Shown here: one piece after another, positions 1-27,211 of the stretch
How the letters are laid out: every line of letters begins with the position of its first letter
Position numbering within the stretch: position 1 is the stretch's first letter
Assembly (NCBI GenBank): GCA_016839555.1
Contig: JAEOUA010000008.1
Location: 64,001-128,000 of the forward strand
Length of the DNA stretch: 64,000 nucleotides
Direction: 5' to 3'
DNA from: Promethearchaeota archaeon
GTDB lineage: Archaea; Asgardarchaeota; Lokiarchaeia; Sigyniarchaeales; SOKP01
Notes under the pieces: model-generated
What the model was told of the DNA's origin: nothing
What the model saw: only the letters and a program-made list of their open reading frames with translations
The model's database searches: none
Program-made: the position numbers and the translations under genes

Positions 1-554
1 TCATCTACAGCATTTTTCACATCCTCTAAATTGTTTAAATTAACCCTTCTTGCTTCAATTCCCATTTGAGGATATATTTTCGTAAATAATCGAAAAGACC
101 CAGTATATTGATTCTTATGAATTACCATATTTGGAATTATTTCAGGCTTTGTTTGAGGATATAATTCTTTAATTTTTTTAGGTCTTATACGCTCTACTCG
201 CTGTTGTAATACACTCATACAAGCTAAATGGATTGAAGCCATACCAGAAGCAACTGATAACCCCGATTCAGCTCCATGTAGTGTGGCAAGCTTTTTATCT
301 AAAGCATATAAAGTAGGATTTTCTGTTCTAGAGTAATAATAATGATTTTTCACAAGCTCAGATAAAGAATCATATACATATGACTTTGTTGCATATATAG
401 GAGTTCGTAGACTATGAGAAGTTTCAGGATAAGGATCTTCCCCGGCAGATATTAATTTCGTATTGAAACGCAGTCTATCCCATTTTTCACGCAATTCTTT
501 TTCTTTTTGGCTTTTTGGTTCATCAATTTCTTTTTTCTCTATAAAAATCACCAT
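1..554 (-). CDS. Cys/Met metabolism PLP-dependent enzyme (methionine gamma-lyase / cystathionine gamma-synthase / sulfhydrylase family), 3' part outside window
   Basis: Not in ORF track; hand translation gives ...FNTKLISAGEDP...LRTPIYATKSY...YSRTENPT...VASGMASI, the typical N-terminus of this family. Confidence 0.85.
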   Translation of the reverse strand, partial: MVIFIEKKEIDEPKSQKEKELREKWDRLRFNTKLISAGEDPYPETSHSLRTPIYATKSYVYDSLSELVKNHYYYSRTENPTLYALDKKLATLHGAESGLSVASGMASIHLACMSVLQQRVERIRPKKIKELYPQTKPEIIPNMVIHKNQYTGSFRLFTKIYPQMGIEARRVNLNNLEDVKNAVD

Positions 555-647
555 TAAAAGTTCAATTTTATTTCAATTTATTAATTTATTTTTTATTTAC
601 AATATAATTTGGTATAATTATTGTAAGTTATTTAGAAGAATTTTAGT

Positions 648-2159
648 CTATAGATCTTTTCCAGGTACATCTAAGGACCCCTCTTCCTCGTCCATTCCTT
701 CTAATTTTCTGTAATCATCCATAGTTCGGGCAGATATGATTTTTAAATATTCTTTAAGCTCCTCATCCACATTATCTGAATAACCTGGTCCTTGTTGAGT
801 ATCAAGGATCTCCTTTACTTTTTCCCCCGCTCTTTCTATAATATCTTTCGAACCTTCTTTTGTCCATTTTCCTCTTCTTTCCCTATCCATTAATTGTGGT
901 ACAAATAACTCTTTTCTCGTATTTTTTGCGGTATGTTTCAACATTAAATAAGCTTTATCAGTATTAGCAACTTCTTTTATTTGTTCGATAGCAAGTGAAT
1001 TTTCATCCACTTTTATTCCCTCTATTCCTCTCTTGACAATACTACATAATTCATCATCTATAACTAATAATTCCAATGCTTCGGAAAGGGATGATTCATA
1101 GGTTCCAGCACAGGTGATATAGTTGATACCCGCCTTTGCAGAACAGAATAATGTTATTAATCTTTCAGCTCCATTTTGGATATCAAAACATTTAGATTCC
1201 GTAACACATCCAGGTCCTCTAGAAGGAATCTTATAATATCTTGCTAATTGTGCATGAGCAGCAGATATCAAACCGGTTTCTATAGAACCCCAAGCTACAT
1301 TTCCAGTCGGAGGATCCATAATACTATTCATTGTGGAATAAAATACAGGTGTATTAGGATTAATTAATTGGGTTAACACAATAGAGGATAAAATTTCCAT
1401 ATTGGATTGAAGCAATAATCCGGCTAGGGTGACTGGAGCAGTAGAACCCGCATTAGCCGCGGGAGCAATAATTATAGGTTGGTTATATTTCGCAAATACA
1501 AAAAGACCATTTAGCATAACCTTTGTAAGCCTAAGGGGACTTGTAGGATTGAAAAAGGAGATTAGTCGAGGTCTCTTTTTTAATTCCTCTTCACCTCCTA
1601 CTATTATTGAGGCAATTTTCATCATGTCTAATGAGGCTGTTCTACCATAACATCCCAGACCATAGGGTTTATAACTATGATTTCCCCATGCATACATTGT
1701 ATGCCAATGGAGTTCGGTAAATTTCACATCATTTGGCCAGACATCTACATGTGAACAATTAATATGTTTTAATGTGTCAACGATCCGTATTTGTTTGATA
1801 GTATCCTCCAGAAGTGATTTTCTTACTTCTTTCTTATGGGACCGATCATAGATTTTGATGGGTGTGCCCACAGTCGCAAAATTGACCGATTTCGTATCGA
1901 TATCTAATCTGAAGGAGCCGTCAGGACCCCATAGAGAAAACGAATCTGGAACTTTCTTTAATTGTTCCATAACTAATTCTTCTGGAAATTTTACAAAATG
2001 CTTATTATTATTTTCAATGATTGCGCCATTTTCTTTCAATAAGGTTCTCGCTTCTTCAGTTTCGACTTTAACTCCAATTTCTTGTAATAAAGTTAACGTA
2101 TTATCATGTATTTGCTCGATCTCATCTAGAGATAATACTTTCATATAGTTTGTTTTCAT
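648..2159 (-). CDS. MttB-superfamily methyltransferase, pyrrolysine-free
   Basis: 503 aa; EIEQIH...LLQEIGVK start, PTSPL, APVTLAG, GSIETGL, ESKCFDIQNG motifs; no in-frame TAG. Confidence 0.9.
   Translation of the reverse strand: MKTNYMKVLSLDEIEQIHDNTLTLLQEIGVKVETEEARTLLKENGAIIENNNKHFVKFPEELVMEQLKKVPDSFSLWGPDGSFRLDIDTKSVNFATVGTPIKIYDRSHKKEVRKSLLEDTIKQIRIVDTLKHINCSHVDVWPNDVKFTELHWHTMYAWGNHSYKPYGLGCYGRTASLDMMKIASIIVGGEEELKKRPRLISFFNPTSPLRLTKVMLNGLFVFAKYNQPIIIAPAANAGSTAPVTLAGLLLQSNMEILSSIVLTQLINPNTPVFYSTMNSIMDPPTGNVAWGSIETGLISAAHAQLARYYKIPSRGPGCVTESKCFDIQNGAERLITLFCSAKAGINYITCAGTYESSLSEALELLVIDDELCSIVKRGIEGIKVDENSLAIEQIKEVANTDKAYLMLKHTAKNTRKELFVPQLMDRERRGKWTKEGSKDIIERAGEKVKEILDTQQGPGYSDNVDEELKEYLKIISARTMDDYRKLEGMDEEEGSLDVPGKDL
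1721..1805 (-). repeat. 85-nt inverted repeat, copy A (partner 3329..3413)
   Basis: Reverse complement matches 3329..3413 at 84/85 positions. Confidence 0.95.
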
Positions 2160-2306
2160 TTTATATCTATTTTTCCTTAAAGAAAAAAAAAGAAAATTTT
2201 TCTTTTCTTATTTAATTTTTATGTTAAAATAGTATTAATTATTAATTTAATTCTTTATTTTATTTTACTACCTAATGATTTAAATAAAAAAGCCTAAAGG
2301 ATATAT

Positions 2307-2954
2307 ATGAGTAGATATCAGGAAGAAATTTATAATGCGATTTTAAATTATGACGAAGAAAGATTAAAAACCATCTGTAAATCCGCTCTTGATAATAATA
2401 AAATAAAACCCATCGAATTGGTAAAAATTATTAGCGATATTATGAGCGAGTATGGAGAAAAATTCGAAAAAGAAGAGATTATGCTTCCAGAACTTATTGT
2501 TGTTGCCAATATTGTAAAAAGCACTATTGATGAAATAATAGACCCTGCCATACGTGCTAGCGGAGAAAAACGTGAAACTAAAGGTAAAATTGTGATTGGA
2601 ACTGTTGAAAGCGATGTTCATTCAATAGGAAAAGATTTAGTAGCTTCTTTTCTTTTTTCCAATGGATATGAAGTCTATAATTTGGGTGTCGATGTCCCGG
2701 CAGCTAAATTCCTTGAAAAAGCAGAAGAAGTAAATGCTGATATTATAGGTCTATCAAGTCTAATTACTTTATCATTAGATTTTCAAAAACAAGTGATTGA
2801 TGTATTAAAAAAGAGAGGAGTACGAGATAAATACAAAGTTATTGTGGGAGGTGCTCCTACATCTGCTGACTGGGCGAAAAAAATAGGAGCAGATGCATGG
2901 GCTGATGATTCTCTTGATGCTGTAAAAAAAGTAAATGAATTATTAAAAAAATAA
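2307..2954 (+). CDS. Corrinoid (B12-binding) protein, MttC/MtbC type
   Basis: Four-helix cap plus DVHSIG (DxHxxG), SSL and VGGAP motifs. Confidence 0.93.
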   Translation: MSRYQEEIYNAILNYDEERLKTICKSALDNNKIKPIELVKIISDIMSEYGEKFEKEEIMLPELIVVANIVKSTIDEIIDPAIRASGEKRETKGKIVIGTVESDVHSIGKDLVASFLFSNGYEVYNLGVDVPAAKFLEKAEEVNADIIGLSSLITLSLDFQKQVIDVLKKRGVRDKYKVIVGGAPTSADWAKKIGADAWADDSLDAVKKVNELLKK

Positions 2955-2977
2955 ATTTATCCGTGTGATGATGTAAA

Positions 2978-4498
2978 ATGAAACTAAACCAAATTAAGAT
3001 CTTAACAAATGATGAAATTGAAACCATTCATAATGCAACCATAGAACTTCTCTCAAAAGTTGGCATTAAAATGGATTGTAAAGATATCCAAAAGCTTATG
3101 CAAGAATACGGAGCAGAGGTAAATAAAGATTCTGATTTTGTGAAAATTCCTGAGTTTTTAGTTAATGAAATGATGAAAAAAGTGCCAGATTCCTTTACGC
3201 TACATGGTCCCGATGGTTCTTTTAACTTTGAGGTAAATACAACTTCTACTCAATACGCGACTATTGGAACTCCGGTGAAAATATACGATCCTAATAAAAA
3301 AAAGGGAGTAAGAAAGACCATCTTGGATGATACTATCAAACAAATTCGGATCGTTGACACATTAAAACATATTAATTGTTCACATGTAGATGTCTGGCCA
3401 AATGATGTGAAATATACCGCCATACATGCTCATGCTATGTATCAATGGGTTAAAAACACTCGAAAGCCATACGGTTTAGGTTGTTTTGGGAAATTACCCT
3501 CTCAGGATATGATGAATATGGCATCTATTGCATGTGGTGGGGATGAGGAATTGAAAAAAAACCCTAGATTGGTTGGTTTTTTTAGTACCACAAGTCCTTT
3601 ACATTTTCCAAAAATTATGACGAATGGATTTGAGGTTTTTGCGAAATACAACCAACCTACAATTATTGCCCCTGAAGCTCTCGCTGGTGCATCGGCACCC
3701 GTCACGTTAGCAGGTCTTCTTACCGAAATTAATGCTGAAAATCTCGGAGGTGCAGTCTTAGCTCAAATATTTAATCCAGGAGCACCATTATTTTATGGAA
3801 ATGTCTCACATATAATGGACATGAAAACGGGTAATTCTGCGATGGGTTCTATAGAAACTGGCTTGATAAGTGCAGCAGTTGCACAATTAGGACAATATTA
3901 TGGATACCCTTCGAGAAGTCCTGGAGCAGTTACAGACTCGAAAGTATTGGATCTTCAAAATGGAATCGAGCGCATGGAGACGCTTCTGTTGGCTACTCAA
4001 GCAGGAATAAATTATATTACTTGTGCAGGAACCTACGAGGCTACTTTAGTTGAAGCTTTAGAATTATTATTAATAGATGATGATTTAGTTGGAATGGTGA
4101 AAAGAGCATTAGAAGGAATTGAAGTGAATGAAGAGACTATTGCATTAGACATAATTGAAAAAGTTGCGACAAGTGATATAAAAGGCGCTTCATTCTTAGG
4201 AGAACTCCATACTATCAAACACATGAAAAAGGAGTTATATATGCCGAACTTAATGGATAGAAAGAGAAGATCTACGTGGTGGAAAGAGGGAGGTAAAAAT
4301 ATTATAGAAAGAGCACGAGAGAAGGTAGAAGAGGTGCTCAAAACTCATAAACGACCCGAAATTTCGCAAGATATTGATAATGAATTTAAAGCTTATATTA
4401 AAGAAGTAGAATCCAGATCTTTACAAGATTATATGAAGGTAGAAGGTTTAGAATCAGCTTCGGCACCTGTCCCTGGAACAGAGATAAAAGAAGATTAA
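2978..4498 (+). CDS. MttB-superfamily methyltransferase, pyrrolysine-free (paralogue 2)
   Basis: 506 aa, collinear with 648..2159; TSPL, APVTLAG, TDSKVLDLQNG motifs. Confidence 0.9.
   Translation: MKLNQIKILTNDEIETIHNATIELLSKVGIKMDCKDIQKLMQEYGAEVNKDSDFVKIPEFLVNEMMKKVPDSFTLHGPDGSFNFEVNTTSTQYATIGTPVKIYDPNKKKGVRKTILDDTIKQIRIVDTLKHINCSHVDVWPNDVKYTAIHAHAMYQWVKNTRKPYGLGCFGKLPSQDMMNMASIACGGDEELKKNPRLVGFFSTTSPLHFPKIMTNGFEVFAKYNQPTIIAPEALAGASAPVTLAGLLTEINAENLGGAVLAQIFNPGAPLFYGNVSHIMDMKTGNSAMGSIETGLISAAVAQLGQYYGYPSRSPGAVTDSKVLDLQNGIERMETLLLATQAGINYITCAGTYEATLVEALELLLIDDDLVGMVKRALEGIEVNEETIALDIIEKVATSDIKGASFLGELHTIKHMKKELYMPNLMDRKRRSTWWKEGGKNIIERAREKVEEVLKTHKRPEISQDIDNEFKAYIKEVESRSLQDYMKVEGLESASAPVPGTEIKED
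3329..3413 (+). repeat. 85-nt inverted repeat, copy B (partner 1721..1805)
   Basis: Single mismatch at 3346, followed by 67 identical nt. Confidence 0.95.
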
Positions 4499-4526
4499 GC
4501 ATATTAAAAATTAAGGTTTTAGTAAA

Positions 4527-5522
4527 ATGATGAGTATTTATGACCATCTTTCACAAGAATCTCCTTGGTCTTGTTTTTTTGCTATAGAATCTTATATAAA
4601 AGCTCTTCACATAGAATTAACCGCAGAGAATCAAATAAAAGCTTTGATAAATTATCAAAAAGATTATAATTTTGATTTAATATTTCCAAGGATGGATTTG
4701 GATGAATATGTAGATTTTATTTCTAAGGTGAAAACAAAAAAAGAGGAAATTTCCAAAAGTAAAGATTGGGTGAATATTAGCCCCGAAAAGATTTTTAATG
4801 TTCCAAATATGCCTCAGATATCGAAATCATCAACCTACCAGATATTAAAAGCAATTAGAGATTATAAAAGTACTGGGAATACATTTAAGTATATAGGTGG
4901 ATTTATTCCGGCTCCATATACTTTAGTATCTTTAGTGCTAGACTTGCAAACAGTTTCAGAATTAGTCATTTTTGAACCAGAATTTATTAGAAAGATGGTA
5001 GAATTTATAACACCGATTATTGAACAATATGCAAAAGTTTTAAGTAGTTTTGTAGACACTTTTTTTATTTTGGCTCCCAGCGAATGTACTATTATGAAAA
5101 AATCGTACATTAATCTTGTCCAAAAAAGTATGAATCAACTAATTCACTATTGCGTTTCTGAATTGAATATCCCAACGATAATGCATATGTGTGCTACAAA
5201 AAACAAAAATATAGTTAATGAAGAGATTATAAAGCCTATGAAAAAAGCAGGAATCTGTGGGTTGAATATTCCTAATATTACTGAAAATATTCCTTTAGCT
5301 CAAAAATATGATTTAATTTTATGCGGAGGGATCGATCCCGTCCAAATTCAATTAGAACCATTTGAGAAGACTTGTAAAATAATTTCATCCTTATTAAATA
5401 AAACTATATCAATGAAATTTATTTTAGCTACCAATTGCCAGATTAAATGGGCTCCTGATCAAATATCTTCTGAGGACTTAATCAATCTTTTCTTTAAATT
5501 GCTGTCTATAGCAAAGAATTAA
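4527..5522 (+). CDS. URO-D / MtaA-CmuA family protein (divergent methylcobamide:thiol methyltransferase-like)
   Basis: GGFIPAPYTL, HMC (HxC), CGGIDP and LATNC motifs; directly downstream of corrinoid and MttB genes. Confidence 0.75.
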   Translation: MMSIYDHLSQESPWSCFFAIESYIKALHIELTAENQIKALINYQKDYNFDLIFPRMDLDEYVDFISKVKTKKEEISKSKDWVNISPEKIFNVPNMPQISKSSTYQILKAIRDYKSTGNTFKYIGGFIPAPYTLVSLVLDLQTVSELVIFEPEFIRKMVEFITPIIEQYAKVLSSFVDTFFILAPSECTIMKKSYINLVQKSMNQLIHYCVSELNIPTIMHMCATKNKNIVNEEIIKPMKKAGICGLNIPNITENIPLAQKYDLILCGGIDPVQIQLEPFEKTCKIISSLLNKTISMKFILATNCQIKWAPDQISSEDLINLFFKLLSIAKN

Positions 5523-5648
5523 TTTCTTTATTAAAGCTTGAAATAAATAATTTTGGAATATTTTATAGCAATAAAAATATTTTGAGTTAAAATGAAGTTC
5601 CAGCTTAATAAAAAAGCTATGTTTTTGTCATGCCAAAAAAATAATAGG

Positions 5649-6617
5649 TTATTCAGTTAATAATTCGACTAAATCTTTTAGTTGAGGCTTTATACGGGCT
5701 CTTTTACCGAATACCTTTATAAACCAATAACAATCGGGGCAATAATACGTAACATAATCTCCTTTATAATCTTCTACTCTAAGCTTAGCTATTTTTTCAG
5801 CAACATCTTTTCGTAATTGATGACCAACCCCTCCTCCACAACAAAAAAGTGGAATATCCATAATTTCATATCCTGAATCATTTAAAAGATGTTCAATTTC
5901 AGTTTTAATCTCTGGCATACAATCATATATTAAAGGACATGCATGTTGAATACTTACTTTTCCCGATTTTTTATTCAATAGTGGCGTTAAATATTTAGTA
6001 TAATATTCAATTTCAATACCTAAATTATTATAATGTTTTTCAAATACCATGTAACAACTAGGACAGACAGTGATAATTTTTTTAAAGCCCTTCTCCATGA
6101 AAATCTTCTTATTTCTCGCAACAAGTTTATCATACGTGCTTATATCTCCTGTTACTAGAATAGGATAAGCGCAACATATTTCCTTTTCTAAAGTAGTAAA
6201 TCTAATTCCTTTTTTAAAGAGATAATTTGCTATATGAGCTCCGTATTGAGGTGTTTTAACGCTTACAAAACAACCAAAATATAATAAGGTATCAGATTTT
6301 TTTGGGAGTGCTTTTGGAAATTTGATTCTGCTTTTTGCGTCTTTATAAGGACTTCCATATTCTTCAAATATTTTTTTGGTTTTCTTTAAACCTTCTATTT
6401 TATTTCCATCTTTCAAAAATTTTTGTTTGAGTAAGATTCGCTCGTCAGAAGTCCCACATTCCCTGCAATGAATACAACTATAGAGTTTATAATAATCTTC
6501 TTGAGTAAATTTATATTCATCCTTTTTACAGAGAAGCTCGTGAACCTCTTCATTCGTAATAAAGTTTTCAGGTTCAACCTCTTGCGCAGGATAAGCCCTT
6601 TCCTTCTTTTCTTCCAT
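5649..6617 (-). CDS. CCG-domain Fe-S protein (HdrD/GlpC-like)
   Basis: CIHCREC, YFGC, EICCA, CPSC, HAC, CCGGG, CPDC. Confidence 0.85.
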   Translation of the reverse strand: MEEKKERAYPAQEVEPENFITNEEVHELLCKKDEYKFTQEDYYKLYSCIHCRECGTSDERILLKQKFLKDGNKIEGLKKTKKIFEEYGSPYKDAKSRIKFPKALPKKSDTLLYFGCFVSVKTPQYGAHIANYLFKKGIRFTTLEKEICCAYPILVTGDISTYDKLVARNKKIFMEKGFKKIITVCPSCYMVFEKHYNNLGIEIEYYTKYLTPLLNKKSGKVSIQHACPLIYDCMPEIKTEIEHLLNDSGYEIMDIPLFCCGGGVGHQLRKDVAEKIAKLRVEDYKGDYVTYYCPDCYWFIKVFGKRARIKPQLKDLVELLTE

Positions 6618-6638
6618 ATGGGATCAACAGCATACAAA

Positions 6639-7622
6639 TTACATTAATAATTCAAACACATCTTTAGCTTGAGGGTGTATACTATATTTTCTTGAGAAGC
6701 GATAAAGCCACCACCAGCAACTGACGCAGTAGGTTGTTACGTAATCAATATTTTCTTTATCAAAATCTTTTATTCTCTTTTCCCCTATAGCATCAATAAT
6801 GTCAATTCTATGCATACGACCTAATCCATGACCACAACACCACATAGGTACATGGATTACGTTATATCCACTTTTTTCGAAAATATTTTCGACAAATTTA
6901 TCTACATTTTCTCGCCCACGATACATAAGCTGACAGAGATGTTGAAACGCAACATTTCCAGACTTTTTTTCCTTAGCAGGTTTTAAATAATCCGAAATAT
7001 ACACAAATTTAATATCTTTATTCATAGCCTCAGCATAATCATTTCTAAAAAGATGATAACATGCGGGGCATAAACAAATTATTTTTTCATAATTCTTAAA
7101 GATTTCAATATTTTCTTTCATACATATCTGGAGTTCTGTTGTAGATCCTGAGACATACCAAGGCCATCCACAACAAATTTCTTCATCCAGAATGGTAAAA
7201 TCAATATTAGTTTTCAATAAATATTCTAAAGCGTGTTCTGTATAATGAGGAATTCGCATTGTGGAAAGACAGCCCATAAAGAAAAGCGTATCAGAATCTT
7301 CAGGTATACCTTCGGGAACCTTTATTCTCATCTTCTTCATGGGATAGGGCGTTCTATATTCTTTAAAATTAGTAAGCATTTCATCCCATCCTTCAAAGGT
7401 ATATCCTTGTTCTAAATATTTCTGTTTTAAAAGTATTCTTTCTCGTTCGGTTTCACATTCTCCACAATCAACACAATTATAAATCCTATAATAATCTTGT
7501 TGCTCAAATTCGAGTTGATTTAGATTCTTAACCATCTCTTTAACTTCATTATCTTCAATAAAATTTTTGGGATCCACCTCTTTTGTAGGATAATTCTTTC
7601 TTCCTTTAATTCTCTCTTTCAT
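6639..7622 (-). CDS. CCG-domain Fe-S protein (HdrD/GlpC-like), tandem paralogue
   Basis: CVDCGEC, FMGC, EICCG, CPAC, CCGHG, CVSC; collinear with 5649..6617. Confidence 0.85.
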   Translation of the reverse strand: MKERIKGRKNYPTKEVDPKNFIEDNEVKEMVKNLNQLEFEQQDYYRIYNCVDCGECETERERILLKQKYLEQGYTFEGWDEMLTNFKEYRTPYPMKKMRIKVPEGIPEDSDTLFFMGCLSTMRIPHYTEHALEYLLKTNIDFTILDEEICCGWPWYVSGSTTELQICMKENIEIFKNYEKIICLCPACYHLFRNDYAEAMNKDIKFVYISDYLKPAKEKKSGNVAFQHLCQLMYRGRENVDKFVENIFEKSGYNVIHVPMWCCGHGLGRMHRIDIIDAIGEKRIKDFDKENIDYVTTYCVSCWWWLYRFSRKYSIHPQAKDVFELLM

Positions 7623-7972: not shown

Positions 7973-8887
7973 TTAGCTCCTTTTTATTATTTTATTGTTT
8001 ACCATATCGGAAATTTTTACATCTGGGTGGTGATATCGCTCATTATAAGATACGATTTCACCATTAATTGCCTTTTGTGGACACCACACATAACACGCGA
8101 AACAATTTTCACAATTATGTTGCCATATAGGTTTATTATTAATAATTTTAATATTATTTACAGGACAGATTTTGGCACATATCCCACAACCATTACAGTT
8201 TTCATTAATCTGAAAGCTTTTATCTGCTAATGGTATCATTTCTTTAAATTTAAGATTTGATGAATTGGATAATTTTCTATATCTTCGGGAGAATACAGGT
8301 TTTATTAATAAATGAAGTAGGAGAGCAGATAGAAATTTAGCAAATTTAGATCGTGTTTCAATCAAACCTTTTTTTTTATGAGAAATATAACCATAAATTA
8401 TGTCAAGCTTATTTTTCGAATTCTCAATAAGCTCTTTTTGTCTTTCTTGAATTTCATGATTACTCTGATTTTCTAATTCTTTACGCAATATTGCCGTTTT
8501 TAATTTATAAAAGACAGAAGGAGGATTAAATAACTTTAAGGTAAAACCAGCAGCTAGTTCACCACCACGATTATTAATTATTTCTTGTAGATTTTCAACG
8601 GTATCCCCGGGATTTCCACTATGGGTACAAACTGAAAAAATATATTTTGAATCAAGGTCTTTTAATTTATTGAGAAATCTTTCAACAATAAGCGGAATAC
8701 CACTAAAACCATTTGTCGCATAGTAGACAGGGAACACAAAACCAATCATATTTGCATCTATCGTTATATTTTCTTTTTCCATCATAGAAGGTATTGATAT
8801 TATTTTTCCATTTATCTTATTCGCAAGGTCTCTTGCTACAGCTAGTGAGTTTCCGGTACCTGTAAAGTAATAAATTTCTTTAGTCAT
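7973..8887 (-). CDS. EFR1-family flavodoxin-like/4Fe-4S ferredoxin fusion
   Basis: YFTGTGNS start, FPVY, CNGCGICAKICP and CENCFACYVWCP. Confidence 0.9.
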   Translation of the reverse strand: MTKEIYYFTGTGNSLAVARDLANKINGKIISIPSMMEKENITIDANMIGFVFPVYYATNGFSGIPLIVERFLNKLKDLDSKYIFSVCTHSGNPGDTVENLQEIINNRGGELAAGFTLKLFNPPSVFYKLKTAILRKELENQSNHEIQERQKELIENSKNKLDIIYGYISHKKKGLIETRSKFAKFLSALLLHLLIKPVFSRRYRKLSNSSNLKFKEMIPLADKSFQINENCNGCGICAKICPVNNIKIINNKPIWQHNCENCFACYVWCPQKAINGEIVSYNERYHHPDVKISDMVNNKIIKRS

Positions 8888-8908: not shown

Positions 8909-9565
8909 TTATTCTCTCTTTCTTATAAGATCAAACAAAAACTTGATATGTATAGATAATTTGTTTATTAAGTTATCAATTAATGTTTCATAGGAAGTCT
9001 CGTTATATTCAACAAGAAAACATTCAAAGAATAGGAAAAGGCAATAATTAAAGAATTCTTTAGCTAGAAGATTAGCATCAAATTTTAGTATATATTCTTT
9101 TTCAATCATTTTTTGGAAAACTTGAGTCCAAAGGGAATAAGAAGGTTCCATAAATTGGTTTTTAAAAAAATCTAAGAATTTATCGTTTCGGTAAAGTTCA
9201 ATACACATCAGTCTTAAGACCTTTCTTATTTGGGGCTTTTTTAATTGTTCCAGCATTGGTTTAGTAGCATTATTTAGAACGATTTCAGGATCATATTTAT
9301 CAAGCAAGCTTTCTATTGATATTTCTTCAGGTTGATATCTAAATTCATTAAGAAGATAATCAATAATAGTATCTATGATATCTTCTTTTCCTTTATAATG
9401 GCTATAAATAGTACTTTCACTAATATCTACTAAACGAGCTATATCTCGTATGGACACAGCATTATAGCCTTTTTGTGAAAAAAGATCGATTGCTACATCC
9501 CTAATACGTTCTTTAGTTCCTTTTTTTTCCTTTTTAATATCTTTTTGCTTCATTATGTTTGGCAA
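8909..9565 (-). CDS. TetR/AcrR family transcriptional regulator
   Basis: TKERIRDVAIDLFSQKGYNAVSIRDIA...STIYSHYKGKE HTH; start may be the ATG at 9553. Confidence 0.93.
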   Translation of the reverse strand: MPNIMKQKDIKKEKKGTKERIRDVAIDLFSQKGYNAVSIRDIARLVDISESTIYSHYKGKEDIIDTIIDYLLNEFRYQPEEISIESLLDKYDPEIVLNNATKPMLEQLKKPQIRKVLRLMCIELYRNDKFLDFFKNQFMEPSYSLWTQVFQKMIEKEYILKFDANLLAKEFFNYCLFLFFECFLVEYNETSYETLIDNLINKLSIHIKFLFDLIRKRE

Positions 9566-17193: not shown

Positions 17194-18534
17194 ATGGAGA
17201 TTCATATAATCGGTAATAATGTAGCGGGCACTTTTACTGCACAGAATATTCGAAAACAAAATAAAGACGTAGAAATTCATATTTATTCGGAAGAGAATTA
17301 TAATTATTACACTAGGGTTAAACTCCCCGAAATAATCTCCGAAAAAAGGGATATTGACGATTTAATAGTTTTTAAGGAGGAATGGTACGAAAATAATCAG
17401 ATTAAAACTCATTTGAATACTAAAATAAAAAGTATCAATCCTGATATAAAATATATGGTAGTTAATGAGTCCGAAGAGCAAATTTCTTATAATAAGTTGA
17501 TTCTTGCAGTTGGTTCTCACCCAAACGAGCCTCCTATAAATAATGCAAGAGAGCGGTTGGGTAATGGAGTTTTTACCTTAAGAAATATTAATGATGCATT
17601 AAAAATTCGCCGATTTATAAAAGAGAATAATTGTAAAAAAGCAATTATAATCGGAGGAGGCCTCTTAGGATTAGAATTATCAAAACAAATAAAAAATTGC
17701 GGTTTAGATACAAGAGTAGTCGAATTTTTTCCACGATTACTGCCTCGACAATTAGATATCGATTGTGCAAATATGCTTAAAAAAGAGGTAGAGGATATGG
17801 GGATAGAAATAGAATTAGATGCAAAAACTGAAAAAATTTTGGCTAATAATACAATAGAAGGTATATTATTAAAAAATGGCGATAAATATGAAGCAGACAT
17901 CATTTTTATACAAGCGGGTGTAAGGTCTAATATTGAACTCGCTAAAGAGGCGGAAATTAGCGTAAACAATGGGATAATAGTGAATAAATATCTGGAAACT
18001 AGTAAAAAAGATATATATGCTGTGGGGGATTGCATTGAATTTAATAATCAAACGTGGGGAATTATTCCAGCATGTATAGAACAAGCGGAAATTGTTGCCT
18101 CTTCAGTTTTAGGCAAAAATAAAAAAGAATATAAAGGAACTACTCCTAAAACAACCTTAAAAATTGTGGGAATTGATCTTACCTCCGTGGGAGTTTATGA
18201 TCCTGAAGAAGTCGGGGGAGGCTGGGAAATTTTAAAAAAAGCTGATAAATCGAGCAATTGTTATCAAAAAATTGTTTTAAAAGATAATAAACTCAAGGGG
18301 GCGATTCTTTTTGGGAAAAAAGATGGGGTGTCTTTTGTAAATAAAAATATTGAATCAGAAGTATCCATAGAAGATATTAGAAAAGCTATTGATGCTTATA
18401 TTTATAAATGTGAAAATTGCGGTGCGGAGTATGATGAGGTTAAAAAAGGTATTGCTTTTCAAGATTTACCAGAAAATTGGAAATGTCCTCAGTGCGGATC
18501 TCCCAAAAAGGAATTTAAAAAGATAGAGCAATAA
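17194..18534 (+). CDS. FAD-dependent NAD(P)H oxidoreductase (NROR/NirB-like) with C-terminal rubredoxin domain
   Basis: [22 protein letters not shown]; C-terminal YKCENCG..YD...[14 protein letters not shown]. Confidence 0.92.
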
Positions 18535-18815
18535 TAGAGTAATTTAATTATTCTATATTTATGAATAACGCTGTATTCTATTTGTAATCTAAAAAAAGAA
18601 TTTATTTTTTATTTTATTCTATTTTTCTTATTAGAGCGATATCAATCAGAAGATAAAATAAATAGATCGTTTGTTTTTCATTTCTTATTAAAATATGATA
18701 ATCTTTTATTTTTTATTATGAATAAATTTAAAACATTTACAAAAAAATTACATATATAGATTGAAATTTCAATATTCATATAATATAAAAAAAATCAAAA
18801 GAGATTGTAATAAAC

Positions 18816-20054
18816 ATGAAGGCTATACAATTAGCTGAGGGTATTCATTGGATAGGAGCCAATATTTCAACAAATGATCTTTTTGAAGGAATATGGCCGA
18901 TCCCAGATGGAGTGACTCTTAATTCTTATCTTGTTCAAGGTGATAAACTTGCTGTAATTGATTTAGTAAGAGATTGGGGTGGTGCGCCCACTTATCTACT
19001 ATCTCAAATGGAATCTGTAGGTGTTAAACCAAAGGACATTGATTATGTGATTTTAAATCATTTAGAACCGGATCATACAGGTTGGTTGGATATGATCCAC
19101 TTGATTTCAGGAGAAGCGAAAATCCTTACTACCGAAAAAGGAGCGGAAATGGCGAAAGCATTGTATAAAGTAAAAGATGAAGATATTAATATCGTGAAGT
19201 CAGGGGATACGTTGGATTTGGGTCAAGGAAAAATACTGGCTTTCGAAGAGATTCCTCATGTGCATTGGCCGGAAACAATGGTCACATATGAGACGAGCTC
19301 AAAGACTTTATTTTCTTGTGATGCATTTGGTTCTTTTGGCGCTCTGAAAGGCTCAATCTTCGATGATGAGGTTCCAAAAGCTGATTTTAAATATTATGAA
19401 GAAGAAACGCTCAGATATTATGCAAACATAGTAGGTCCCTTTTCTGGTCCAGTTTTAAAGGCATTAGAAAAAGTAGATTCACTAGAAATCAATACAATTG
19501 CGCCCTCCCACGGACTCATCTGGCGCAAAGAACCCCAATATATTATTGAACAATACCGTGCGTATGCAAATTATAGCAAAAATTATGCGGAGCCAGAAAT
19601 AACTTTTATATGGGGAAGTATGTATGGAAATACAGAACATATGGTCCGTGCTGTATTAAAAGGTATAGCGAAAGAAGAAGTTCCAGTACATATTTTCCAT
19701 GTTCCCGAAGATGATGTGTCTTATATTTTAGGTCAAGCGTGGAAAAGCGCGGGTTTAGTGTTTGGAATGCCCACCTATGAATATAAAATGTTTCCGCCTA
19801 TGCGATATGTGGTCGACCTATTGGCTCAAAAACAAGCTCGGTATAAAAAAGTTCTTAGATTCGGCTCATTTGGATGGAGTGGAGGTGCGGAACGGGAGTT
19901 TACAGAGAAGATTGAACGGTTAAATTGGGACTTGCTTGAGTCTTTCGATTTTAAAGGCGCACCCACTGAAGAGGATTTAAATAAAGGAATTCAATTAGGT
20001 CAAGAATTAGCAAAACAAGTAAAAACAATCCCAAGAAAATTTAATCCAAAATAA
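18816..20054 (+). CDS. fprA: Flavodiiron protein (A-type flavoprotein; O2/NO reductase)
   Basis: HLEPDH, HWPE, SCDAFG, PSHG, SMYGNT, SFGWSGG. Confidence 0.95.
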   Translation: MKAIQLAEGIHWIGANISTNDLFEGIWPIPDGVTLNSYLVQGDKLAVIDLVRDWGGAPTYLLSQMESVGVKPKDIDYVILNHLEPDHTGWLDMIHLISGEAKILTTEKGAEMAKALYKVKDEDINIVKSGDTLDLGQGKILAFEEIPHVHWPETMVTYETSSKTLFSCDAFGSFGALKGSIFDDEVPKADFKYYEEETLRYYANIVGPFSGPVLKALEKVDSLEINTIAPSHGLIWRKEPQYIIEQYRAYANYSKNYAEPEITFIWGSMYGNTEHMVRAVLKGIAKEEVPVHIFHVPEDDVSYILGQAWKSAGLVFGMPTYEYKMFPPMRYVVDLLAQKQARYKKVLRFGSFGWSGGAEREFTEKIERLNWDLLESFDFKGAPTEEDLNKGIQLGQELAKQVKTIPRKFNPK

Positions 20055-23761: not shown

Positions 23762-24400
23762 TTAACTTACTTCTTCTGCTAATTTTTTAATGTGTTTAAC
23801 ACCATCTACCGCATCTTCAGCAAAATCGTCTGCCCCTAATTGTTTCGCTAATTGCATATTTAAAGGAGCACCTCCCACAATTAATTTCACCTTATCCCTT
23901 AATCCTTCTTTTTTTAAGGCTTCATGGACTGCTTGAATTTGCTCCACAGTCATAGTTAGTAAAGAACTTAGGGCTACGATGCGTGCCCCGGACTCCTTTA
24001 CTTCCTTGATTATTTTATCTTCATCTACATCCATTCCTAAGTCATGAATCTCAAAACCAGAACTTAAAAGTAGAGAGGCTAAGATATTTTTTCCAATATC
24101 GTGATTATCTCCCTTTACCGTCGCAACGATTATCTTTGTTTTATTTTCTGCCTTTTCCGTGGCAGCTAGAGCAGGTTGAAGTATCTCGAAGGCTTCCTTC
24201 ATTGTTTCTCCCGCTAATACTAATTCGGTTAGATAATATTCTTTTTCCTCATACCGTCGACCAACCTCATCCATCCCTTTAGTCAAGGCATTCAATACCT
24301 CAAAAGGATCCTTGTCCTCATTTAACGCCTCTCGAACGGCATCTTGAATATCATCAACTTCAAGTTCAATAACTAACTCTGTTAATTTTTCAAACTCCAT
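23762..24400 (-). CDS. Corrinoid (B12-binding) protein, stand-alone
   Basis: GDNHDIGKN, SSLLT, VGGAP. Confidence 0.93.
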   Translation of the reverse strand: MEFEKLTELVIELEVDDIQDAVREALNEDKDPFEVLNALTKGMDEVGRRYEEKEYYLTELVLAGETMKEAFEILQPALAATEKAENKTKIIVATVKGDNHDIGKNILASLLLSSGFEIHDLGMDVDEDKIIKEVKESGARIVALSSLLTMTVEQIQAVHEALKKEGLRDKVKLIVGGAPLNMQLAKQLGADDFAEDAVDGVKHIKKLAEEVS

Positions 24401-24585
24401 AAAAATGTCTATCTCAATTTTTCATTATAAAATAAATTTTCATTAATTAATTTAATTAATTTAGTCTAATTAATTAATAAATCTTATTTTCTCTTCTCCT
24501 AATATTGAAATTATAAAATAGATTGATCCGTAATTTATTCTTAATATTAGGATAATAATATGTCTGTTCTTATGAGTCAATATTC

Positions 24586-24716
24586 AAAAAAAAAAGAAAG
24601 AGAAAAACGGGAATCGCAAAATAAGTTAAGATCATACGATAAAATTAGGTTTTACCATATTTTAATTAGGAATTAGGGGATATTAAACAATCACGATTCC
24701 ACGACTTTCTCTCTAT
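24586..24716 (-). ncRNA. Candidate structured small RNA (unrecognised)
   Basis: TTTAAATA box at 24739-24746, 20-bp closing stem (24691-24712 with 24599-24619) whose three G-U pairs work only on the minus strand, then a U10 run. Confidence 0.45.
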
Positions 24717-25031
24717 GTAAATACTATAGTGACTCTTTTATTTAAATGCTTCGTATTAAAACTATTAAATTCTGAAAACTATAGAGAAGTGAGAGAATAG
24801 AAAGGAGGCATTTTTCGCTAACATCATAGCTGAACAAAAAATGGGAGTCTTTATTTTCCTATATAGAGGGAGTAAAATTTAATAAGCAAGAGGGTTCTAA
24901 TTCAAATTTAACTCACATTGAATATATATTGGAAAAAGGTGAAAATTTTCATTCAAGCATAGAAATTTTCCCATACATATTTGAAAATGAGATTTATTTG
25001 GAGGAGATATTTATGAATCTATTTTTACTAC

Positions 25032-26012
25032 TTATTCTATTTTAATAGTCATTAAATCTTGAGCCAAAAATGTATTAGGAAAGATAGCTCTCGCCTCTTC
25101 CAAAAGTTTTTGAGCTTCTTCTTGATATCGAGCGGAAATATGGGTTAATATCAGCTTTTTCGCATTCATCTTTACAGCATCATGGGCAGCATCAACAGAA
25201 GTAGAGTGTAGTTTTTCATTGGCTATATCAGATAGCTTTTTTGCGAAGGTAGATTCATGAATAAGAAGATCTGAGTCTTTTCCAAGTTCGATAAGTGATT
25301 GACAAGGTGCAGTGTCTCCAGAATAGGTGATTTTCCTTCCAGGACGTTCATTATCAACGATGCCCTCTTTAATTGGATTAATTATTCTACCTTGATATTT
25401 AATTGATTTGCCGGTCTGAAGAGTTTTCCAAAGATTACTTTCAGGAATTCCGAGGTCCTGAGCCCTTTCAGGATGAAACTTTCCATAACGAGGTTTTTCT
25501 ACGAAAGCATATCCATAGGTAGTAATAGAATGTTTCATAAGTGCATATTTTAAAAAATAACGATTTTTTTCAAATATAACACCATTTTCAATATCTATTT
25601 TGTCTATAGGAGGTTCTGATTCTAGGCCATGATATTGAATTAATTGGTTGTTTTCATGGTCAATTTCATAAATAATTAAATTGTAATCGGTTCTCAAGCC
25701 CAGAATTTTTTTATGAAGATAGAGATAAAGAAATAAATTCCTTGGTCCAAAAATTCTTAATGATGCATTCCTCTCTATTAAAGCAAAGCGAAATAAGAGT
25801 CCAGGAAGTCCAATAATATGGTCTGCATGAAAATGAGTAATACAGATGATTAGAGATTTATTTAATTTTAATCCCGCCTCAATAAATCGACGTTGCGTAT
25901 CTTCTCCACAATCAAAAAGAATTAAATCGCCACGATATCTTAAACCTATAGCTGATAGATTTCTTTCACGGATAGGCGTGGCAGCTGAACTGCCCAAAAT
26001 CACTAATTCCAT
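25032..26012 (-). CDS. rnz: Ribonuclease Z
   Basis: LFDCGE, THFHADH, exosite arm, YSGDT, HEST, HST, THISARY. Confidence 0.96.
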   Translation of the reverse strand: MELVILGSSAATPIRERNLSAIGLRYRGDLILFDCGEDTQRRFIEAGLKLNKSLIICITHFHADHIIGLPGLLFRFALIERNASLRIFGPRNLFLYLYLHKKILGLRTDYNLIIYEIDHENNQLIQYHGLESEPPIDKIDIENGVIFEKNRYFLKYALMKHSITTYGYAFVEKPRYGKFHPERAQDLGIPESNLWKTLQTGKSIKYQGRIINPIKEGIVDNERPGRKITYSGDTAPCQSLIELGKDSDLLIHESTFAKKLSDIANEKLHSTSVDAAHDAVKMNAKKLILTHISARYQEEAQKLLEEARAIFPNTFLAQDLMTIKIE

Positions 26013-26032
26013 TGGATTATCGGTACACTTTC

Positions 26033-27211
26033 TTATTTTTTTAACTCATAAATTTCAGTTCTCTGCTGATTAGTCAGTTTCTCGAGTTCTTTTATCATTC
26101 TTTTCAGTTCATTTAATCTTAGAGAATCCAATTTTGATATATCTGCTTCTTTAATAATTTTTTCTCGTTCATCTATCTGACTTTTCAATTGCTTCATTTT
26201 TTCGGATTTTGATTGTAATTCCTCCTTTAATTGAGCGATGCTATCATCTTGAGTGGTTTTAGTAGATACTGTTTCTTTTAACCTTTTAATTTCTGTCTGC
26301 AATTTATTAATTATTTGTTTACGTTTATTTAATTTATCTTGTAATTCTTTTGTAAGTTCCGTTATTCCAGGTGCTGGCAGGATCCTTTCCACAGGTTTAG
26401 GGGGGACTTCTGACAATTTTGCATCTAAGGTTGAAATTTTTTCTATGAGATTTTGAATTTGGTTATTTTTTTCTTCAATTTGTTCTTTAAGATCGGCATT
26501 TTCAGTTTTTAATTCATTAAGCTCTTTATTTTCAGTAGATTCTTTTACAGGAACTTCAGCTGCTTTATATTTATTAAGTGTTTCTTGTAAAGTTTTTACT
26601 TGCTGACGAGTTCGGTTTAATTTCATTTGTAATTCTTCAGTAAGGCTTTTAGTTATAACATTGGAAGAAGGTTCCATCTTGTTCTTACTCTCGATTTGTG
26701 CTTCTAATCCTTCTATTTTTTTATCTTTTTCTTTTAACTGCGCCTCATATTTTGTACTTGAAGCATAAGCACCTCCTTCTTGTTGCAATTGATTGATTAA
26801 TTGTTTTTGTTTATTAATTTTGTTCTGTAACTCCTTTATTAAAGCATCCATGGAGGGCATATCTTTCTTCAAATCTATTGTAGATTTCGAGGCTTCTTTT
26901 TCATTTTCCTTTTCTAATTCCTCTATTTTTTTTCGAAAAGATATATTTTCCTTTCGAAGAAAACCCATTTTGTCTTTTAATTCTCTATTTTTTTTTTCTC
27001 TATCTGCTAATTCAATTGATAATTTGGTTTCCTGGACTTTTTCAGAGTCAAATGAACCTTTTGATTCAGCCTCATCAATAAGTGATTCTAATTTTAAGAT
27101 ATTATCCTCAAGCAATTCAATACGATCTAAATAATTATTTATGGTTTCATCTTTTTCTTGTAATTTTTCTTTTAATTCTTTTAAATCTTTTTCTAAGGGG
27201 TTCTCTGCCAT
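26033..27211 (-). CDS. Long coiled-coil protein with internal repeats
   Basis: Heptad-rich and K/E/L/Q-rich; three copies of LxxELQxKxN. Confidence 0.8.
   Translation of the reverse strand: MAENPLEKDLKELKEKLQEKDETINNYLDRIELLEDNILKLESLIDEAESKGSFDSEKVQETKLSIELADREKKNRELKDKMGFLRKENISFRKKIEELEKENEKEASKSTIDLKKDMPSMDALIKELQNKINKQKQLINQLQQEGGAYASSTKYEAQLKEKDKKIEGLEAQIESKNKMEPSSNVITKSLTEELQMKLNRTRQQVKTLQETLNKYKAAEVPVKESTENKELNELKTENADLKEQIEEKNNQIQNLIEKISTLDAKLSEVPPKPVERILPAPGITELTKELQDKLNKRKQIINKLQTEIKRLKETVSTKTTQDDSIAQLKEELQSKSEKMKQLKSQIDEREKIIKEADISKLDSLRLNELKRMIKELEKLTNQQRTEIYELKK

Follow-up and report, generated by a model that had tools for sequence, protein, structure and literature searches.

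A corrinoid methyl-transfer module with non-pyrrolysine MttB enzymes and a Cys/Met-family PLP enzyme in Loki-type Asgard archaea

Results and discussion

In Loki-type (Promethearchaeota) Asgard archaea, the locus described here appears to form part of an accessory module for catabolism that is organised around a B12 protein; the mechanism is one that we infer, and it is, as a whole, the explanation towards which we lean without strong confidence. Its methyl donor is most likely an onium compound that bears a carboxylate and belongs to the methionine family. The locus lies at the start of the window, i.e. the whole 64,000-nucleotide stretch of Promethearchaeota archaeon DNA that was analysed, and the compared relatives also bear the name Promethearchaeota. 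The host is a Loki-type Asgard archaeon incapable of methane production: no mcrA turned up anywhere in the genome (92% complete, 6% contamination), nor did ComA. A preliminary description of the window had suggested a corrinoid methyl-transfer locus in a non-methanogen and had pointed out the absence of mcr from the window. The first suggestion is supported, and the absence now extends to the genome.

Gene content of the locus

Every gene listed in the preliminary description was found at its position by domain matches and open reading frames. The features are as follows (window positions).

1-554 (3-554), minus strand: 5' part of the Cys/Met-family PLP enzyme (PF01053); the full protein has 431 aa, and its gene runs past the window start to G000:C7:63259
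648-2159, minus strand: MttB1, non-Pyl MttB superfamily (PF06253, 329 bits), co-oriented with the PLP gene
2307-2954, plus strand: corrinoid protein, MtgC/MtbC-like (PF02310 and PF02607)
2978-4498, plus strand: MttB2, non-Pyl MttB superfamily (PF06253, 338 bits)
4527-5522, plus strand: MtaA/CmuA-like URO-D-fold protein, highly divergent (PF01208, 55.8 bits)
5649-6617, minus strand: CCG1, HdrD/GlpC/TfrB-like (PF02754, two domains)
6639-7622, minus strand: CCG2 (PF02754, two domains)
7973-8887, minus strand: EFR1-family flavodoxin/ferredoxin (NF038196, 192 bits, above the cut-off)
8909-9565, minus strand: TetR regulator (PF00440)
33142-34596: CdhD/E-family gene, described earlier as cdhE

The genes for the corrinoid protein, MttB2 and the URO-D-fold protein lie on one strand with gaps of 23 bp and 28 bp, respectively, and have the classical MT1/corrinoid protein/MT2-like operon layout. 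None of the RNA runs contained the locus.

Conservation among relatives

The core of the module consists of a GPH-family importer, the Cys/Met-family PLP enzyme, one or two non-Pyl MttB proteins and the corrinoid protein. It was present in 21 of the 22 compared loci (genera g1, g2, g4, g7, g11, g12 and g13 and family f3), as was the corrinoid protein considered singly; the compared genomes all belong to one class, so that relatives do not count as independent samples and part of the synteny inside one family reflects inheritance. In about half of the genomes of the family these genes occur as a set, and the set holds despite a swap of the PLP/MttB1 order in three loci and the loss of MttB1 in three (L068, L071 and L078). 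The neighbourhood is thus conserved as far as the importer, PLP, MttB and corrinoid genes are concerned, but this does not extend to the MtaA-like gene and the CCG pair.

CCG1 and CCG2 are paralogues with 40% identity, and the two PF02754 stretches in each give them the two-domain arrangement of HdrD/GlpC-type proteins, in agreement with their earlier annotation. CCG1 scored 81 bits with the TfrB model, below the cut-off, and the surroundings of the CCG genes revealed neither a partner dehydrogenase nor an Hdr subunit. The pair neighbours the module in two genera only (genus g1 and G029), is absent from most loci, and in two relatives (L018 and L020) lies 3-4 kb away from the module, with unrelated genes in between. 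The CCG proteins, which had been taken as part of the pathway, are probably outside it. The EFR1-family gene and the TetR gene that follow the pair, and stay beside it in L020, are probably a separate unit.

The MttB paralogues and the corrinoid protein

Both PF06253 matches were full-length (cut-off, 25 bits), and MttB1 and MttB2 share 57% identity. When the two proteins were aligned with the solved M. barkeri MttB (7xcl) using HMMER, the Val of GAVTDSK in MttB2 paired with X (= pyrrolysine), and the Val of GCVTESK in MttB1 likewise aligned to the Pyl position, which bears out the earlier reading of two non-Pyl paralogues. Both open reading frames were uninterrupted, with no in-frame stop or UAG. 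The Pyl position is occupied by Val in all 18 MttB1 orthologues and by Val, Ile or Gly among the 22 MttB2 orthologues. Neither protein is a true trimethylamine methyltransferase MttB: with TIGR02369 they scored 383 (MttB1) and 424 bits (MttB2) against a cut-off of 525, and Pyl is lacking. MttB2 orthologues occur throughout family f1, and MttB2 is the module's invariable MT1. The corrinoid protein was confirmed by its B12-binding and B12-binding_2 domains together with the DxHxxG-type motif DVHSIG, which place it in its family. Among NCBIfam models, its best match was MtgC (183 bits), with MtbC also at 183 bits, both under the cut-off; TIGR02370 gave 171 bits against a cut-off of 215.

MttB2 matched MtgB (2qne/9yce) at 1e-72. 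MtgB binds betaine through Y97, R312, H348 and F356 (PMC13080624), and a single residue of these four, the equivalent of R312, is kept, in all 22 MttB2 orthologues. Ile or Val stands at the position of Y97 and Thr or Ser at that of F356, while H348 aligns to a gap. Across 40 MttB orthologues, the carboxylate-binding Arg is invariant, whereas other residues take the place of the aromatic box and the His. Since only one of the four betaine-binding residues is kept, the proteins do not look like MtgB glycine betaine methyltransferases, and their substrate is probably, as judged from these residues, other than glycine betaine.

The same residues bear on whether the locus encodes an ordinary glycine-betaine-type MtgB/MtgC system, in which the PLP enzyme, transporter, MtaA-like protein and CCG pair would be unrelated neighbours kept together by shared ancestry. 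The match of MttB2 to MtgB, the rank of MtgC as the best model for the corrinoid protein, and the possibility that synteny among genomes of one class is inherited would suit such a system. We nevertheless judge it quite improbable, given the loss of three of the four betaine residues, the survival of PLP-MttB adjacency through the order change and the loss of MttB1, a presence or absence of the PLP gene that follows the module, and the start of the MtaA-like gene just behind MttB2 on the same strand.

The PLP enzyme

The PF01053 match confirmed the Cys/Met PLP enzyme at the window start. The full-length protein scored below every NCBIfam cut-off (cystathionine gamma-synthase, 368 bits; Met gamma-lyase TIGR01328, 345 bits with the cut-off at 550), and among solved structures it comes closest to Met gamma-lyases (1y4i, 3e-94). 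Met gamma-lyases carry the signatures YGC (Tyr114-Gly-Cys116) and Lys240-Asp241 (criteria in PMC11568061). In the Asgard enzyme, QYTGS replaces YGC, and Glu with a one-residue gap replaces Lys-Asp, so that it is not a canonical Met gamma-lyase; 19 orthologues share these differences as well as an insert of ~20 residues. The enzyme retains the PLP lysine (SLTKY) and, near its C-terminus, the carboxylate Arg. Because the YGC and Lys-Asp signatures are missing, the reaction of the enzyme is uncertain.

The PLP gene is the sole member of its family in the genome. In 65 of ~70 related genomes, it lies within ~2.2 kb of an MttB orthologue on the same contig despite local rearrangements, and at 1e-40 no homologue of the PLP gene was detected in genomes that lack the module (e.g. 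G152 of the same genus). These observations support the earlier proposal that the enzyme is tied to the methyl-transfer system. Since the gene is found only alongside the MttB module, it suggests catabolism or salvage rather than methionine biosynthesis. Genes for homocysteine and methionine synthesis are present elsewhere in the genome (two copies of HcyBio and a short MetE-like gene), and no MetH-type Hcy domain (PF02574) was found in the genome. Of the links suggested earlier, to methionine synthesis or breakdown, the former is weakened by these separate synthesis genes and by the accessory nature of the PLP gene.

The MtaA-like protein and the thiol question

Methanogens use zinc enzymes of the MtaA type for thiol methylation. 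The URO-D-fold protein passed only the Pfam URO-D model (cut-off, 23.9 bits); it scored 30.4 bits with TIGR01463 (MtaA/CmuA family; cut-off, 235) and ~30 bits with MtaA/MtbA-type NCBIfam models, whose cut-offs are 235-600, and it is ~20% identical to the nearest MtaA-like proteins. HemE was rejected as a candidate, since TIGR01464 gave 16 bits against a cut-off of 303 and the family profile reached 3.5e-23 with the best HemE vs 2.8e-43 with MtaA. Profile comparison thus places the protein on the MtaA/CmuA side of the family and not with the decarboxylases on the HemE side. The AF2 model (pLDDT 95) has a URO-D fold (TM 0.72), and the fold search by itself did not separate MtaA from HemE. The HxC...C pattern noted previously corresponds to His220-x-Cys222...Cys304, which is invariant across 7 orthologues and 29 family members and aligns with the LHICGN and PGC stretches of MtaA (4ay7); these residues are predicted zinc ligands.

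Among 400 genomes of the phylum, 7 carry the MtaA-like gene (five of six in this genus), and its family is tiny: at E<1e-30, 1.84e9 representatives yielded 5 clusters. Within the genus, the protein shows 50-60% identity, compared with 72-85% for the PLP, MttB and corrinoid proteins, and this faster divergence could mean relaxed constraint. The divergence, the very narrow distribution and the wide miss of all curated cut-offs except that of Pfam URO-D would fit a decaying or functionless recent acquisition of this genus. However, 7 genomes and 4 metagenome contigs preserve an intact reading frame, 38 columns including the H/C/C residues and an APSEC block are invariant over 12 members down to 31% identity, and the structure model is confident, which makes decay highly improbable.

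In a proposal built on the preliminary description, a betaine-like donor gives up methyl groups that reach a thiol (homocysteine, sulfide or a CoM-like compound) by way of the corrinoid protein, with the URO-D-fold protein as MT2, the PLP enzyme serving methionine synthesis and the CCG pair acting on a disulfide. The order of the corrinoid protein, MttB2 and MtaA-like genes resembles mttC/mttB/mtbA, and the invariant zinc ligands and the lack of a MetH-type Hcy domain also favour this proposal. There is, moreover, a bacterial precedent for one corrinoid protein serving both betaine demethylation and methionine synthesis (PMC12478193), and sulfide or thiols have been proposed as acceptors of MtaA-like proteins (PMC10418091). 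However, ~60 genomes retain the PLP, MttB and corrinoid core without the MtaA-like gene. Since it is found in so few genomes of the phylum, this thiol-handling candidate lies outside the conserved system. The failure to find ComA or mcrA makes CoM an unlikely acceptor. The HcyBio and MetE-like genes elsewhere, the accessory PLP gene that is lost with the module, and a CCG pair split off in two relatives and missing at most loci also count against the proposal, which we therefore regard as unlikely. The corrinoid/non-Pyl MttB locus, the zinc ligands and the PLP linkage are retained from it, but the conserved thiol step and the roles given to the CCG pair, CoM and methionine synthesis are not.

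Proposed mechanism

In the catabolic module that we favour, the importer would take up a cationic, carboxylate-bearing methyl donor (quaternary ammonium or sulfonium) other than glycine betaine. MttB2, with MttB1 where present, would transfer a single methyl group onto the corrinoid protein's Co(I), and the PLP enzyme may degrade the amino-acid skeleton left by demethylation, or supply it, via gamma-carbon chemistry. Since the conserved core contains no MT2 gene, we infer the route to the Wood-Ljungdahl pathway from genes elsewhere: in most genomes, MtrH-type methyltransferases (8 copies in this genome) would unload the methyl-corrinoid into that pathway. A search for RamA-type activases yielded two RACo/RamA-type genes, on C8 and C4 outside the locus, whose products would maintain the cobalt in its reduced state. 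Only this genus seems to have added a very divergent zinc-type MtaA-like enzyme to the corrinoid-MttB2 operon. The enzyme would most likely link the operon's corrinoid protein with a sulfur compound, in either direction: with a methyl group taken from a methyl-thioether or methanethiol, or placed onto a thiol. As this rare MtaA-type enzyme was added only in this genus, a methyl-to-sulfur link limited to the genus is plausible from the sequences. Non-Pyl MttB proteins in Asgard archaea have already been published (PMC11291895), and MtaA-like proteins of non-methanogens have been proposed as S/Se (de)methylases (PMC10418091).

Comparison with known systems

The MtgB/MtgC/MtgA glycine betaine:tetrahydrofolate system of Desulfitobacterium hafniense (MtgB also in Methanolobus) resembles the Asgard module in its non-Pyl MT1 with a cognate corrinoid protein, its separately encoded activase and the kept carboxylate-binding Arg312. 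In contrast, the Asgard MttB proteins have Y97, H348 and F356 replaced, and their cluster lacks an MtgA/MtrH-type MT2 and has the Cys/Met-family PLP enzyme and the GPH importer as constant partners. The MttB/MttC/MtbA trimethylamine:CoM system of Methanosarcina follows the same logic of MT1, corrinoid protein and zinc-dependent URO-D-fold MT2, with His-x-Cys...Cys aligned, whereas the Asgard proteins have Val in place of pyrrolysine, the genome has no mcr or ComA, and the MT2-like protein falls far below the cut-offs of the MtaA/MtbA models.

Corrinoid-linked zinc enzymes of the MtaA family that exchange methyl groups with S/Se are found in the MtsA/MtsB methylthiol:CoM methyltransferase of Methanosarcina barkeri and the Mlp clusters of non-methanogens, for which a tie to methionine-related metabolites has been proposed (PMC10418091). 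The Asgard locus differs in having a single, far more divergent MtaA-like gene behind MttB. A type I Mlp cluster comprises several MtaA-like genes (>25% identical to SCMT), a corrinoid protein and a RACE/Ram activase (PMC10418091), and the locus, with one divergent MtaA-like gene and no activase within it, is not of this type. MtgBCDE of Ruegeria pomeroyi (PMC12478193) similarly joins an MttB-family enzyme and sulfur-amino-acid metabolism on one corrinoid protein, but does so through MtgD, which binds pterin, and through a homocysteine module of the MetH type (PF02574); the Asgard locus has neither. Finally, the Met gamma-lyase of Citrobacter freundii (1y4i), the best solved match to the Asgard PLP enzyme, has the PLP lysine and the C-terminal carboxylate Arg in common with it, while the Asgard enzyme is set apart by QYTGS for YGC, Glu for Lys-Asp and its conserved insert.

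Gene organisation of the locus

The genes of the locus occupy approximately 5 kb upstream of the window and its initial 9.6 kb.

Features of the locus (window coordinates unless another handle is given; G000:C7 is the contig of the window, L010 a locus fetched from it)
upstream of the window: GPH-family (MelB-like) transporter; TIGR00792, 173 bits (cut-off 231, not reached)
L010:6354-7176 = G000:C7:62354-63176, just upstream of the window: MntA/HepT type VII toxin-antitoxin pair
end at 554, (-): Cys/Met-family PLP enzyme, 431 aa
648-2159, (-): MttB1
2307-2954, (+): corrinoid protein
2978-4498, (+): MttB2
4527-5522, (+): URO-D-fold (MtaA-like) protein
5649-6617 and 6639-7622, (-): two CCG proteins
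beyond the CCG pair: EFR1-type flavodoxin/ferredoxin
beyond EFR1: TetR regulator

The preliminary description had read this region as a corrinoid methyl-transfer locus in a probable non-methanogen, and its gene calls, the Val at the pyrrolysine (Pyl) position and the absence of mcrA were all confirmed. Neither mcrA nor ComA was found in the genome, G000 (3.74 Mb, 12 contigs, 29% G+C, 92% complete, 6% contaminated), and a CdhD/E-family gene is located inside the window at 33142-34596. The nearest relatives of G000 in public records carry the label Promethearchaeota (Loki-type Asgard archaea). CoM was rejected as a likely methyl acceptor from a search for ComA and mcrA, which found neither. In G000 only, the MntA/HepT pair is inserted so that it separates the PLP gene from the GPH transporter gene, two genes that adjoin each other in relatives. 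When sequencing runs were searched, the marsh metagenome shares were 0.30 or less and the conclusion on habitat is confined to marine sediment; no RNA runs containing the locus were listed in this search.

Distribution and linkage of the module

The GPH transporter, PLP enzyme, MttB1 (where present), corrinoid protein and MttB2, hereafter the module, occurred together in 21 of the 22 fetched loci. MttB1 was missing from three loci, and the order of the PLP and MttB1 genes was inverted in three. Orthologues of MttB2 (59-81% identity) were present in most genera of the family. When the positions from the MttB2 search were compared with those from the PLP search, a PLP orthologue (at least 63% identity) was located on the contig of an MttB1/2 orthologue, within ca. 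2.2 kb, in 65 of approximately 70 genomes, the exceptions lying on short contigs; genomes from a single family are not independent samples. No PLP homologue was found at E ≤ 1e-40 in the family genomes that have no MttB module, including G152, a genome of the same genus that is 93% complete.

The MtaA-like gene was far more restricted, being present in 7 of the 400 phylum genomes (five of the six of the same genus and one in a neighbouring genus), and was located directly 3' of the corrinoid protein and MttB2 genes in each genome carrying it. No substitute MT2 was found 3' of MttB2 in other genera; the genes seen there encode a VTT-domain protein, a hydrolase, a P-type ATPase and hypothetical proteins. 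The CCG pair adjoined the module only in the window's genus and in the related genome G029; in two relatives the CCG pair and the MtaA-like gene were 3-4 kb apart, with unrelated genes for a glycosidase-like protein, a histidine kinase and regulators in between. Besides, two thioredoxin-fold (PDO-like) genes adjoined the module's GPH transporter in genus g1 (L018:3360-4697, L019:15366-16730 and further loci).

Substrate site of MttB1 and MttB2

The Val of the MttB2 motif GAVTDSK aligned with the residue that is Pyl in the solved MttB of M. barkeri, the Val of MttB1 fell in the same column, and the residue of MtgB at this position is Leu. MttB1 and MttB2 were almost equidistant from MtgB (1e-72) and TMA-MttB (1e-70). 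Glycine betaine is bound in MtgB by four residues, Y97, R312, H348 and F356 (PMC13080624). Among these, the carboxylate-binding Arg alone was kept in 40 of 40 MttB orthologues, while the two aromatic residues were replaced by Ile/Val and Thr/Ser and the position of the His was in a gap. Since only this Arg is kept, a different methyl-onium compound that carries a carboxylate is the probable substrate, and glycine betaine was rejected as the likely one on the same comparison.

Codons 112-150 of MttB1 and MttB2 (1710-1826 (-) and 3311-3428 (+)) were 91-93% identical at the nucleotide level as compared to ca. 60% elsewhere in the genes, and because the genes are divergent, the two tracts form a near-perfect inverted repeat. 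This pattern resembles the result of a short gene conversion between MttB1 and MttB2. In three relatives, an otherwise full-length MttB or PLP match was reported with a single in-frame stop, TAA or TAG (G155:C65:25169-26680, G154:C176:6163-7674 and G120:C65:50055-51314, the last a TAG in the PLP gene); these stops may fall within extended flanks or stem from assembly errors.

The PLP enzyme is tied to the module

The best solved relatives of the PLP enzyme were methionine gamma-lyases (MGLs), Citrobacter MGL scoring 320 bits, ca. 45 bits more than the best-scoring gamma-lyase or gamma-synthase that is not an MGL. MGLs are recognised by a YGC motif and Lys240-Asp241 (PMC11568061). The PLP enzyme has QYTGS in place of YGC, Glu and a one-residue gap in place of Lys240-Asp241, and an insert of ca. 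20 residues, and keeps the PLP Lys and the carboxylate Arg; all of these features were conserved in 19 orthologues. Judging from these residues, the enzyme is a distinct subfamily.

The PLP gene is the sole member of its family in G000, and two HcyBio genes for homocysteine synthesis lie elsewhere in the genome. The only methionine synthase candidate found was a MetE-like protein of 343 aa with an HVC motif (G000:C11:124952-125983, fetched as L084:1953-2984, (-)), which scored 118 bits against the archaeal methionine synthase model (cut-off 258, not reached); a MetH-type homocysteine domain was absent from G000. The location of the homocysteine and methionine synthesis genes elsewhere, together with the accessory distribution of the PLP gene, argues that the enzyme serves the module's pathway, in breakdown or salvage, rather than general methionine biosynthesis. 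A housekeeping role was rejected in view of the module-bound distribution, the sole family copy and the separate HcyBio and MetE-like genes.

The MtaA-like protein has the Zn-site residues of MtaA

The MtaA-like protein passed the Pfam URO-D threshold alone, reaching ca. 30 bits against the MtaA, MtbA and CmuA models (cut-offs 235-600) and 16 bits against hemE, and it has diverged faster than its neighbours. HMMER, run exhaustively over 1.84 billion representatives, returned only five clusters at E < 1e-30 with 31-59% identity, of which P0002, a distant family member, is labelled as Promethearchaeota (NCBI MHA1731196.1) and the others carry no taxon. Past these five, ordinary MtaA/CmuA-like proteins with ca. 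20% identity appeared. Scans of genome contigs and metagenome contigs with the family alignment matched only close relatives.

PDB searches with the single sequence or a 7-sequence profile gave no meaningful match. MtaA was reached only with the wider profile of 29 sequences, which matched the M. mazei enzyme (4ay7) at 2.8e-43, as compared to 3.5e-23 for the best HemE hit. His220, Cys222 and Cys304 were invariant in 29 of 29 aligned sequences, and their columns coincided with the LHICGN and PGC stretches of MtaA, which, as Hoeppner et al. reportedly described in 2012, hold its Zn ligands. The refuting outcome named in the preliminary description, that the protein would group with decarboxylases or lack a Zn site, did not arise in these comparisons. 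An AlphaFold model built from the 29-sequence alignment (pLDDT 95, pTM 0.93) had the URO-D fold, with a TM of ca. 0.72 to both HemE and MtaA (Foldseek); the fold alone therefore does not separate them. An APSEC block (Glu186, Cys187) was also invariant in the subfamily and could, by inference, supply a fourth Zn ligand.

Other methyl-transfer genes in the genome

G000 has a very large corrinoid repertoire for a non-methanogen, with 21 hits to the URO-D family, nine corrinoid proteins and three MttB genes, as well as eight stand-alone MtrH genes and two RACo activases. A complete system of MttB3, corrinoid protein, MtrH and RACo is encoded on contig 8. Several of the URO-D paralogues have no HxC motif at all. 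There are 28 GPH transporters, several of which adjoin URO-D genes, and five lie at most 5 kb from a methyltransferase gene.

Within the window, the stretch 23762-27211 (-) encodes another corrinoid protein, which has 212 aa and shares 38% identity with the first. Its neighbours are a 392-aa protein that lacks any Pfam match and a protein of the metallo-beta-lactamase fold; no recognisable methyltransferase was seen beside it. The most G+C-rich stretch of the window (34%), at 17194-20054 (+), encodes a pyridine-nucleotide disulfide oxidoreductase fused to rubredoxin and, after it, a flavodiiron-type protein (metallo-beta-lactamase and flavodoxin), a pair that looks like oxygen or NO detoxification.

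Proposed pathway

The analysis showed which genes and residues are present, that their linkage is conserved and that mcr and ComA are absent; the steps of the mechanism below are what we infer. A carboxylate-bearing methyl-onium compound would be taken up by the importer, and the Co(I) corrinoid protein would be methylated by MttB2, and by MttB1 where present. Either ahead of demethylation or following it, the PLP enzyme would act on the amino-acid skeleton at its gamma carbon. Methyl groups would be unloaded into the Wood-Ljungdahl pathway by MtrH-type enzymes encoded elsewhere, a route already put forward for other non-Pyl MttB systems of Asgard archaea (PMC11291895), and cobalt would be reactivated by RACo enzymes.

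The Zn MtaA-like enzyme of the window's genus most likely links the same corrinoid protein to a sulfur compound, and because of the spacing, its gene is taken to be transcriptionally coupled to the corrinoid protein and MttB2 genes. Zn sites of the MtaA type serve reactions of thiolates both ways: CoM is methylated by MtaA and MtbA, and methylthiols are demethylated by MtsA. For the MtaA-like enzyme, a methanethiol or thioether donor is at least as likely as the thiol acceptor that the preliminary description had envisaged. The neighbouring PLP enzyme resembles methionine gamma-lyase, the product of which is methanethiol.

A more specific version, which we regard as improbable, is that the module degrades a sulfonium amino acid of the S-methylmethionine type, with both S-methyl groups ending on the corrinoid protein. 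MttB would remove one methyl group by SN2 attack of Co(I) on the onium centre, as with betaines, leaving methionine; the PLP enzyme, with Glu for Lys-Asp, would split this thioether amino acid into 2-oxobutyrate, ammonia and methanethiol; and in this genus the Zn MtaA-like enzyme would act like MtsA, passing the methyl group of methanethiol to the same corrinoid protein and releasing sulfide. If true, this would be the first MttB-family enzyme for sulfur-bound methyl groups, and an Asgard archaeon would have a complete route by which a sulfonium compound from plants or algae feeds both of its methyl groups into the Wood-Ljungdahl pathway. No report of an MttB-family enzyme with a sulfonium donor was found in the literature searched (MttB and S-methylmethionine).

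Significance and comparison with known systems

Non-Pyl MttB systems have already been noted in Asgard archaea, with their substrates unknown (PMC11291895). The literature searched held no earlier report of a fixed partnership of MttB, a methionine-lyase-like PLP enzyme and a GPH-type importer, seen here in dozens of Loki-type genomes, or of the genus-specific gain of a very rare Zn MtaA-like enzyme. This partnership narrows the candidate substrates to onium compounds with a gamma-substituted amino-acid skeleton, and thus gives a concrete, testable handle on the methylated compounds consumed by sediment and marsh Asgard archaea, a matter of relevance to the cycling of sulfur volatiles and to how methylotrophic methanogens are competed with. 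The genomes with and without the MtaA-like gene form a natural comparison that could show the role of Zn-type MtaA homologues without coenzyme M.

The proposed pathway would work like the MtgB/MtgC and MttB/MttC/MtbA systems. However, the MttBs of the locus fall outside MtgB by their binding residues and outside true MttB by Pyl and the cut-off, and the MtaA-like protein falls outside the curated MtaA/CmuA, MtaA and MtbA models. Bacterial MtgBCDE, in which betaine demethylation is coupled to methionine synthesis, has pterin and MetH-type modules, both of which are missing from the locus (PMC12478193). Unlike the Mlp clusters of non-methanogens, the locus has no activase and carries a single, very divergent MtaA-like gene behind MttB (PMC10418091).
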